Assembly: GCA_037140755.1 (NCBI GenBank) | Contig: JBAXDW010000001.1 | Span: forward strand, 1-31,710 | DNA: 31,710 nucleotides | Direction of reading: 5' to 3' | Source of the DNA: Methanobacteriota archaeon | Lineage (GTDB): Archaea > Halobacteriota > Bog-38 > Methanoflorentales > Methanoflorentaceae | Program-made: the position numbers | Part shown: positions 1-3,000 of the stretch, in pieces | Numbering within the stretch: position 1 is the first letter of the stretch | How the letters are laid out: the number at the start of each line of letters is the position of its first letter

Positions 1-3000
1 GTAACTGGGTATCGAGGGGAAGTGATTCGTTCTCATTTCGATGCGGCGCAGCAAGGGGCACAGATTGAGTATGTAACGCAAGAGAAACCGCGCGGGACGG
101 CTGACGCAATTGGCCAGGTTAAAGATCTCGTGGATGAGCGCTTCCTAGCCCTCAACGGAGACAGTTTGATAAGCCCCATCACGCTGAAATTGCTGGCGGA
201 GACTCCACGAGATCGAGCAGTTGTTGTCGCGGCTAAGAGAGTTAAAGAACCTACCAACTATGGCATCATCGACGCAAAAGGTGACGCTGTTTTAAAAATA
301 GCGGAAAAACCTGATATGCCGGTCTCTGATTTATCAAACTTGGGCATTTACGCTTTTGAACCTGTAATATTCGATGCTATTTCTCAGATCTCGAAGTCGG
401 CAAGAGGCGAGTACGAGATCACTGACGCGATACAGTTTTTGATCGACCACGGACAAAACGTGCGATATCTTGATGTCAAGGAAGAATGGATAGATATTGG
501 AAGGCCTTGGGATCTACTGCATGCCAACGAGCTACTCCTCCAGACACTCGAACGCGCAAACGAAGGGACCGTCGAACCCTTTGCAACTTTGAAAGGCGAG
601 GTGCAAATCGGGCGCGGTTCGATTGTGAGAAATGGCGCTTACGTTATAGGCCCCGCAATAATCGGTGAACGCTGCGACATAGGGCCAAACTGTTTCATAC
701 GTCCCGGTACGTGTATAGGAAATGGAGTCAAGATCGGCAACGCGGTTGAAGTGAAAAATTGCATCATAATGGACGACAGCCGAATTGGGCACCTATCTTA
801 CGTCGGCGATAGCATTATCGGGCAGCGTTGCAATCTTGGCGCGGGGACTTTGGTTGCCAATCTCCGATTTGACGAGAAGTCTATTAAGGTGGCAGGAGTT
901 CACACGGGACGACGAAAACTTGGGGTCATCATGGGTGACGACGTGCATACAGGTATAAACAGCATGATAAATGTCGGAACGTCTATAGGTCCCGGCTCGA
1001 TCGTTGGTGTTGGCGCGCTAGCTGCTGGAGTTAATCCTCCAGGTTCACGAATCGAACGGAAAGCTGCTGCGCAACGATAATGCTTACCGTTCGCTTCGAG
1101 ATGATAAGTTATTTAGCCGATGGAGCGCGTTAGCTCAGAGGAGACGAGTCATGCGGATCGCTGTTTTCATTGGAACTCGAGCGGAACTGATAGGGATGGC
1201 TTCTTTTCTCAAGGAGATTGATAAGCACGACGAGGCTGAGCTTATTTTCGCCCATACTGGACAACACTATGACCGTGGGATGTATGAAGACCTCTTAATC
1301 GATTTGGATCTTCGAGATCCCGATTACAGCCTCTCGCTCGGCAATATGAGTTACAATAAGCAGATCTCCGCCATGATCAGTCAGGTCGACGGTATACTAG
1401 AAAGAGCAAAACCTGATTTCGTGTTCGTACAAGGCAATGTCATCTCGTCGTTTAGCGCAGCCATCGCATCATCGATGAATTTCGTTCCCGTTGGCCATAT
1501 TGAGTCGGGCTATCGCTCGTTACGCGACTTGCACAGTGATGTGAGGAGAAGAGTAATCGAAATGTGCGCGACGCAATTCTTTCCCGTGTGTAACGCAGCC
1601 TATCTGAACTTGATCGAAGAGTGCTACGATCCTCATTACATCCATTACTTAGGCGATCCTCTGATAGATTCGCTCCTTGACTGCAAGTCAAGAGCTCAGA
1701 AGGCGGACTCTTTTAATGTGTTTCGCGAAGGCGAAAGGCCGCTTGTAGCATTCGCCGTGAGGCTGCCGTGGAACATTGGAACCCCTGAGGCACTAGGGCG
1801 AATCGTGAAAGCTGCGATCAGTCTCGATGATTATAACGTCATCGTGCTCTTACATCCAAATACGCGAAACCATCTCATCAAGTTTGGTCTAACGGATAAA
1901 TTGCAGTCGTCTCAGAATATCCATCTTATCGATCCCCTTCCTTATACAGATTTTATACGACTAATGATGGACTGCGACGTGTTAGTCACCGATTCTGGGG
2001 GCCCTCAGAAAGAAAGTGCGATCTTGCAAACGCCATGTATCACGCTATCTGATAGCACCTACTATGTCGAGACCGTCGAAAAAGGTTGGAATAGGTTATT
2101 AGGCAAGAGTCCGGATCCCGATGTCTTGACTGATGCCATACGGTCGACGGCGCCAGGAAAAACGATAGACGACTCTCTAAACGATGGCAAATCGTCAGAG
2201 CGAATAGTCTCTAAAGTCGTTCAACTTTTTGGAGAAAACAGCCTCACGATCGCTCCGCAAGTGTCAAAAACGAGCTTCTATACCCACCTAACGTGTTTTT
2301 CGGAAGGTTTTATGGGGATGCGCACGCGAGCTGCCTCTGAAGCTGAAGGTACCGTACAAGCGATGTTCGACGAGACAGGAGATATTACCCTAGACACGAG
2401 GCGAGCTCAGATTGTGCGTGCATTTGGGCCAACCAGGAAGCTTTGAGAAATTGGAAAGGAGAGATCTTAGATGATCAGTAGCTACACGGTCTTTTTGCTA
2501 ATAGTCTCCGTCCTAATTTCATTTGCAGTTACCTTTGCTGCAACGCCGCCTCTCATTAAAAGAATGAAAGCAGCAGGCGTATCTGGCACTGACGTACATA
2601 AAGTTGACAAGCCTAAGATTTCTGAGATGGGTGGCTTTGCAATCTATGCGGGGTTCGCCACCTCATTAATTCTCGCTGCTTTTTTGGGCATCAGTCTGGA
2701 GCTGATATTAGTTTCACTGCTGGTTGTGACTTTATCAGCGATGATAGGGGCCCTAGATGACGTCATGCACCTCGGTGCAAAGGAAAAGCCCCTCCTCGGT
2801 TATCTCGCAGGCATTCCCCTTATATTAGCTGCTGGAAATGATCCATATCTTATCATACCGCTGCTGGGAACCCTGTGGCTTGGACTCGTATGGCTTCCTA
2901 TTGTGCCCTTCGCCGTTACAGCTGGAGCCAACGCTGTCAACACCTTCGCTGGATTCAATGGAATGGAGATCGGATGCGGCGCCATAGTTACGTTTTGCCT

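Follow-up and report, generated by a model that had tools for sequence, protein, structure and literature searches.

Non-hydrolysing UDP-GlcNAc 2-epimerases of the WecB/MnaA type (PF02350, TIGR00236) adopt a GT-B fold and are represented, among others, by the M. jannaschii enzyme (4NEQ/4NES) and the WbpI-type enzyme of T. thermophilus (8SXY). In the E. coli enzyme, the D95N, E117Q and E131Q variants have activities too low to measure, and the T. thermophilus D98N variant co-purified with UDP-GlcNAc and UDP, of which the wild type carried only a few percent as much (PMC10622841). These epimerases also have an allosteric site, in which the 4-position of the bound GlcNAc lies 3.2 Å from the beta-phosphate of the UDP-sugar in the catalytic site (PMC10622841, PMC4793188). 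Here, we describe an archaeal protein that shares the GT-B fold and approximately 30-34% identity with these enzymes and that probably has a new job in building cell-surface sugars. Its gene lies in a stretch of 31,710 nucleotides (the window) from a Methanobacteriota archaeon (assembly GCA_037140755.1, contig JBAXDW010000001.1, positions 1-31,710), whose family (Bog-38 type by isolate names) inhabits peat and fen soils.

Fold and pocket residues of a variant WecB

The gene, referred to below as the variant wecB (positions 1151-2446, forward strand), is an open reading frame of 431 codons that begins with ATG and has GAGGAG 7 nt upstream, in agreement with the original prediction of a full-length gene with a ribosome-binding site. 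Promoter and terminator scans gave matches at chance level. The product matches PF02350 with an E-value of 6e-61 and scores 200.2 bits against the wecB equivalog TIGR00236, just below the cut-off of 210.15, and 78 against the hydrolysing-type TIGR03568, for which the cut-off is 236. An AlphaFold2 model (pLDDT 82.5) gave a TM of 0.90 (by target) to the T. thermophilus 2-epimerase 8SXY; in a fold search it reached a Z of 42.5 to 4NES, and the next-nearest folds were GT-B transferases with Z of 20-24.

Five positions of E. coli WecB were mapped onto the variant protein via their T. thermophilus equivalents (PMC10622841), on the basis of MAFFT alignments and of HMMER alignments with the enzymes of M. 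jannaschii and T. thermophilus. K15 is replaced by G15 (codon GGG), E131 by S129 (AGT), H213 by R204 (AGG) and D95, the catalytic base equivalent to T. thermophilus D98, by N96 (AAT, positions 1436-1438, forward strand), and E117 is retained as E118. An alignment by eye had already suggested the changes of K15, D95 and E131 and the loss of the H213 block, all of which are confirmed; no acid or His is placed at positions 15, 96, 129 or 204. Further losses, in T. thermophilus numbering, are R209 to L205, R242 to N237, R302 to S300 and E306 to Y304; Pro11 has become Ala, and Y305 occupies the position that contacts the C3-OH, which is Arg in UDP-GlcNAc enzymes. The non-canonical pocket residues are thus G15, N96, S129, D130, R204, L205, N237, S300, Y304 and Y305. 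Such losses are not chance, since 207 homologues outside the group retain D95 in 205 cases, E131 in 206, H213 in all 207 and K15 in 197.

It had also been claimed that only the E117 equivalent and the TDSGG motif survive; both do, but so do R10, E12, Q38, H39, D41, Q94, H116, R122, R133, H235, Y265, S282 and E288. R10, E12, Q94, E118, S282, G283 and E288 remain in the catalytic site, and Q38, H39, Y/F40, D41 and H235 in the old allosteric site. The His213-Arg214 bridge between the two sites is absent, the equivalent residues being R204-L205 in the clade of the source genome (the Bog clade) and H-T in a second archaeal clade. R10, S282 and E288, which bind UDP, and the Glu117 equivalent E118 are invariant across the variant proteins. 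Judging from the alignments, the UDP-binding residues have been retained and the former allosteric site has been remodelled.

An ordinary or slow UDP-GlcNAc 2-epimerase, as databases annotate the protein, would agree with the family and fold matches and with the label of non-hydrolysing 2-epimerase that the sources give to the orthologues. However, we regard this reading as highly improbable: normal 2-epimerase activity is predicted to be very unlikely because either D95N or E131Q alone renders E. coli WecB immeasurably slow (PMC10622841) and both positions are changed in the variant; in addition, every one of 24 family genomes has a canonical-type copy. By fold and descent, the variant WecB belongs to PF02350, and by its defining catalytic features it is neither WecB nor NeuC.

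Conservation in two archaeal clades

Approximately 60 orthologues share 63-88% identity with the variant WecB, beyond which the next matches fall to approximately 34%. All of the replacements are invariant in the 53 full-length orthologues (67-88% identity), and Asn occupies position 96 in 53 of 53 Bog-clade rows as well as in 7 of 7 rows of the second clade. Across these 53 orthologues, 22 of 24 pocket residues are invariant compared to a background of 45% (Fisher p 1e-6, for sites that are not fully independent). Pairwise dN/dS is 0.08-0.14 (pairs with unsaturated synonymous sites), and the corresponding values are 0.07-0.17 for glmU, 0.06-0.13 for the adjacent phosphotransferase gene (GPT) and 0.09-0.13 for canonical wecB. 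The variant gene, with the same residues, is present in 24 of 24 family genomes (two copies partial), all of which also give a match to canonical-type wecB, split in one genome and partial in some; in the source genome, the canonical wecB lies on contig C226 and NeuC on C232. The split copy consists of two pieces (G023:C3:134482-135481), which may reflect a frameshift or an assembly error, and a neuC-neuB pair on C232 (L002) points to the synthesis of a sialic-acid-like sugar in this methanogen.

The loss of catalytic residues is not decay, and the replacements are under strong purifying selection. A decaying duplicate of the genome's own wecB would account for the many missing catalytic residues and the presence of a second copy, but it is ruled out by dN/dS values that match those of glmU, GPT and canonical wecB, by the identity between the two genera (68% for the variant versus 61% for canonical wecB), by the presence of the gene in all 24 genomes, and by the tree, in which the variant is not sister to the genome's own wecB. 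The original prediction had seen no decaying pseudogene here, and the dN/dS values, the invariance of the same replacements in 53 orthologues and the canonical copy on C226 all agree with it.

A search of 377 further genomes of the phylum revealed no high-scoring member: full-length members reach 570-596 bits, all other matches stay below 300, and the best-scoring non-members are canonical. The residue-by-residue check in these wide genome searches covered the top matches, so that a third degenerate clade, if distant from the other two, may have gone unnoticed. Genes with 69-79% identity also occur in records labelled Candidatus Bathyarchaeia or Candidatus Acidoferrales (L011, L017 and P0050); L011 and L017 carry the gene order of the family, and the labels of all three records are probably due to mislabelling or misbinning.

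The second clade, reached through a protein found by profile search (P0150), comprises approximately 10 proteins of 357-369 amino acids that are approximately 33% identical to the variant WecB and lack its C-terminal tail. Both clades have G15, N96, D130 and Y305 and have lost P11, E131, R214 and two other Arg residues; clade 2 differs in retaining H213, in having V/I at position 284 and in having G where the Bog clade has S129. Invariance across both clades is found for 13 of 24 pocket residues versus a background of 16%. The two clades group together, apart from the family's own wecB, with an SH-aLRT of 98, or of 92 without the motif columns; these are quick trees, the trimmed one falls below the 95 mark, as does the GPT tree, and long branches may attract. 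The two clades are two cases rather than fifty. Neighbours of the clade-2 genes look archaeal. Bathyarchaeia as the host is unsupported, as a search of 400 genomes of the class and 300 of the phylum around a genome so labelled revealed no members, the top matches being canonical. A neighbour of approximately 770 amino acids in clade 2 (L060) was considered as a relative of a 779-residue protein encoded in the window and is unrelated to it.

The Bog-clade proteins end in a tail (approximately residues 365-431; positions 2243-2443, forward strand) that is poorly modelled yet partly conserved, with 17 of 62 residues invariant. Although it has no direct match to PF02080 (TrkA_C) in Pfam, hhalign relates it (P 69%, E 4e-5) to the tails of long archaeal WecBs, of which 9 of 20 do match PF02080. 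The tail model, which drew on TrkA_C-like rows, is weak (pLDDT 61), as are the matches from fold searches (KtrA at E 0.32; the best Z, 4.9, belongs to an unrelated protein), and an Atlas search gave nothing above 0.82. The tail is probably an inherited, shortened TrkA_C/RCK_C remnant, as these profile links suggest, and it is not needed for the function common to both clades, because clade 2 lacks it.

The adjacent phosphotransferase and the glycan locus

Downstream of the variant wecB lies a gene for an AglH/GPT-type polyprenyl-phosphate HexNAc-1-phosphotransferase (positions 2471-3472, forward strand; PF00953, E 5e-26), which retains the catalytic motifs DD, N..N..AG.NG and F.GD and shares its loop V with the GPTs of clade 2. 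No other PF00953 gene turned up in the genome, and this one is present in 18 of 18 relatives searched. In metagenome loci of the Bog clade, the two genes adjoin in 38 of 40 cases, and the other two contigs stop at the variant gene or shortly beyond it. In clade 2, the genomic context was checked for seven proteins, and each has a PF00953 gene, either adjacent or no more than three genes away, in the opposite orientation, and accompanied by GT4, GT2 and GT-C-type genes. At canonical wecB loci from the same search, many of them short, a GPT-like neighbour was found once in 32, and none of 41 TACK GPTs has a WecB-like gene within approximately 1.5 kb. In one clade-2 locus (L065), a methyltransferase gene separates the two, and several genomes of the second genus have an extra gene between GPT and the gene for the 779-residue protein (an SAM methyltransferase at L047:9347-10123).

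The GPTs paired with the variant WecB are approximately 40% identical to each other versus 29-35% to other Halobacteriota GPTs, and they group together at an SH-aLRT of 88. Where most related TACK GPTs have a basic patch (ERRE..R) in loop V, the paired GPTs have the motif NY...T.S..F..T; this loop has been proposed to recognise the donor sugar or to dock cytosolic glycosyltransferases (PMC5222938). Because the genes are paired in two clades, with a co-altered loop V and grouping in both trees, the variant wecB and its GPT appear to have travelled and changed together, which is suggestive rather than decisive. The original prediction of a pseudo-enzyme or a GT-B enzyme with new chemistry, working with GlmU or GPT, stands as far as both functions remain candidates; the partner is narrowed to the AglH/GPT-type enzyme, since a GPT with co-altered loop V accompanies the variant in two distant lineages and a full GlmU in only one. 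At the level of the module, it is quite likely that the variant WecB is a non-epimerase partner of this GPT. In most other GPT/AglH-like proteins of Halobacteriota, the GD of the F.GD motif is GN and an NMHSG motif occurs; these proteins may represent a separate, possibly altered subfamily (L185, L189, L192, L193, L201-L204, L206, L211 and L212).

In both genera the gene order is glmM-glmU-variant wecB-GPT, followed on the opposite strand by the 779-residue membrane protein and a Wzx-type flippase, and then by a GT4. The archaeal GlmU-type nucleotidylyl/acetyltransferase gene (positions 1-1080, forward strand; TIGR03992, 438 bits against a cut-off of 292) has its 5' end cut by the window, and glmM lies directly upstream of it in relatives. 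The membrane protein (positions 3646-5985, reverse strand) is conserved beside the operon in both genera and has no family match, although it may be a candidate GT-C-type enzyme; the flippase (positions 6041-7342, reverse strand; PF01943, E 4e-7) and the GT4-type glycosyltransferase (positions 7413-8567, forward strand) are conserved in the locus as well. AglB and glmS are encoded elsewhere in the genome. Upstream of glmM in relatives, and beyond the window edge, both genera have a diadenylate cyclase gene, dacZ (PF02457, PF21754), at a distance of two genes from glmM (L004:3009-3881; also L047-L056), an arrangement that recalls the bacterial cdaA-glmM linkage. The window also contains a second archaeal GlmU-type gene (positions 15805-17073, forward strand; TIGR03992 over the cut-off), a PIG-L-type deacetylase preceded by a 538-residue protein with an HQPNFLPY motif and no Pfam or NCBIfam match (positions 13503-15735, reverse strand), and, within the glycan locus, a radical SAM protein (positions 10945-12000, forward strand) that recurs in L009, L010 and L016.

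Possible functions and comparison with known systems

The most probable single reading, to which we give a probability of about 0.37, is that the variant WecB is a glycosyltransferase that uses the old allosteric site for its acceptor; a non-catalytic UDP-sugar-binding partner follows closely. On this view, a UDP-GlcNAc 2-epimerase has ceased to epimerise and would be dedicated to the AglH/GPT encoded next to it, the two acting together where a lipid-linked glycan pathway begins. UDP-HexNAc would still be bound in the old catalytic site, where Asn96, held by the unchanged G95/H116/R133 scaffold, may bind the sugar without removing the C2 proton, elimination to the glycal being blocked, and the old allosteric UDP-GlcNAc site would have become the acceptor site. 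Overall, the product of GPT, lipid-(P)P-HexNAc, would gain a second HexNAc in a retaining, SNi-like transfer for which the departing phosphate serves as base. An acceptor close to the beta-phosphate is the geometry of phosphate-assisted retaining transfer in GT-B mechanisms.

This proposal is favoured by the invariance of G15, N96, D130 and Y305 across 33% identity, by GT-B transferases being the nearest folds after the epimerases, and by the lack of a conserved Alg14 or TagA/WecG in the family (each 0 of 24 genomes, with GT28_C in 4 of 24); these absences are weak, as the genomes are 59-91% complete and Sulfolobus Agl24 went undetected in a PF08660 control. Several points argue against it. 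The GT4 conserved in the locus (GT4 and GT2 in clade 2) is an alternative candidate for adding the second sugar, so that there is no strict hole in the pathway. The allosteric site lacks its pyrophosphate-binding Arg and keeps Y/F40 and D41 on the uracil side, a pattern more in keeping with a nucleotide than with a lipid pyrophosphate; the Bog-clade proteins are acidic (pI 5.2-5.6), with no membrane anchor identified; and the two clades disagree at H213 and G284. To our knowledge, there is no WecB-derived glycosyltransferase. The GTR[AG]E of the variant presumably resembles the GSRGD base motif of GT1 enzymes, which is only a lead, since E12 is also common in canonical enzymes (60 of 207). We tentatively suggest a new family of WecB-derived glycosyltransferases that, with a dedicated AglH-type GPT, may form a two-gene priming module producing a lipid-linked disaccharide without Alg13/14, Agl24 or TagA.

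Alternatively, and with nearly equal probability, the variant WecB could be a non-catalytic pseudo-enzyme that binds UDP-HexNAc and serves GPT as a subunit, a sensor or an adaptor for donor delivery; by tuning or feeding GPT, it would couple UDP-GlcNAc supply (glmM-glmU) to glycan priming. Its Asp-to-Asn change is exactly the one that makes a substrate trap of the T. thermophilus enzyme, the UDP contacts R10, S282, E288 and Y265 and the sugar contacts E118 and Q94 are retained, and the dimer-interface helices remain hydrophobic. The gene sits between glmU and GPT, and the paired GPT lacks the basic patch in the loop thought to recognise the donor. Against it, two clades that share 33% identity have fixed identical replacements, the new D130 and Y305 among them, whereas dead positions in pseudo-enzymes often vary. 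A literature search for a pseudo-enzyme among 2-epimerases found none.

An enzyme of different nucleotide-sugar chemistry, such as another UDP-sugar epimerase or a hydrolase, that makes or remodels the donor of GPT seems less likely than either of these. D130, E118 or E12 would serve as acid or base in the loop before helix 5, which is shorter by 1-2 residues and in which E132 has become an invariant Asp while E131 is lost; K15G opens space, and an NTP transferase gene neighbours the variant in both clades. Loop V of the GPT is altered as if for another donor, Y305 occupies the position where Trp marks UDP-GlcNAc3NAcA-specific enzymes (PMC10622841), and human GNE D112A keeps approximately 2% activity (PMC4793188). 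However, both acids implicated in proton abstraction are gone, the hydrolysing-type markers GNE R113 and S302 are absent (V/N97 and G283 in the variant), and no dehydrogenase or aminotransferase gene is conserved alongside.

Compared to WecB/MnaA, the variant shares the HTGQH and TDSGG motifs, R10, E117, R135, the UDP contacts and the dimer helices, but K15, D95, E131, H213 (in the Bog clade), R214 and three more pocket residues are replaced by fixed alternatives, and it has a 70-residue tail and a linked GPT gene. With the hydrolysing NeuC, SiaA and GNE it shares the fold and an Asp immediately following the E131 equivalent, whereas those enzymes keep the catalytic Asp and the R113/S302 equivalents where the variant has N96-V97 and G283. 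Among its nearest canonical relatives by profile score are long archaeal WecBs of 430-460 amino acids with a related, TrkA_C-like tail (Methanobacteriales-labelled P0431 and P0447); unlike the variant, they have all catalytic residues intact. Such catalytically intact WecBs, some labelled Methanobacteriales, are found at P0122-P0265 (long members) and P0426-P0475. We found no published description of a subfamily like the variant in the literature searched, and its members, annotated as 2-epimerases, almost certainly are not.

The T. thermophilus D98N variant likewise has Asn in place of the catalytic base (PMC10622841), but it is an engineered single change with the allosteric site intact, whereas the variant WecB is natural and selected, with a remodelled allosteric site; if non-catalytic, it would regulate a priming phosphotransferase as a natural substrate trap. 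A possible functional analogy is offered by AglH with Agl24 in Sulfolobus and by Alg7 with Alg13/Alg14 in eukaryotes, in which a GPT priming enzyme is followed by a soluble GT-B protein. Unlike Alg13, Alg14, Agl24 and MurG, the variant lacks the GGH motif with the catalytic His (PMC8993221), its first loop being GTRAE or GTRGE, and among 43 members none matches PF08660 or PF04101 and two match PF03033 at an E-value of 0.04. In euryarchaea, AglK reportedly assembles N-glycans on Dol-P (PMC8993221). A diether lipid carrying GlcNAc-1-phosphate is known from M. voltae (reference in PMC2952790). If the variant WecB is a transferase, an epimerase would have turned its allosteric site into an acceptor site, which would add to the known ways of attaching the second sugar in lipid-linked glycans and bear on the role of AglH-type enzymes in euryarchaea.
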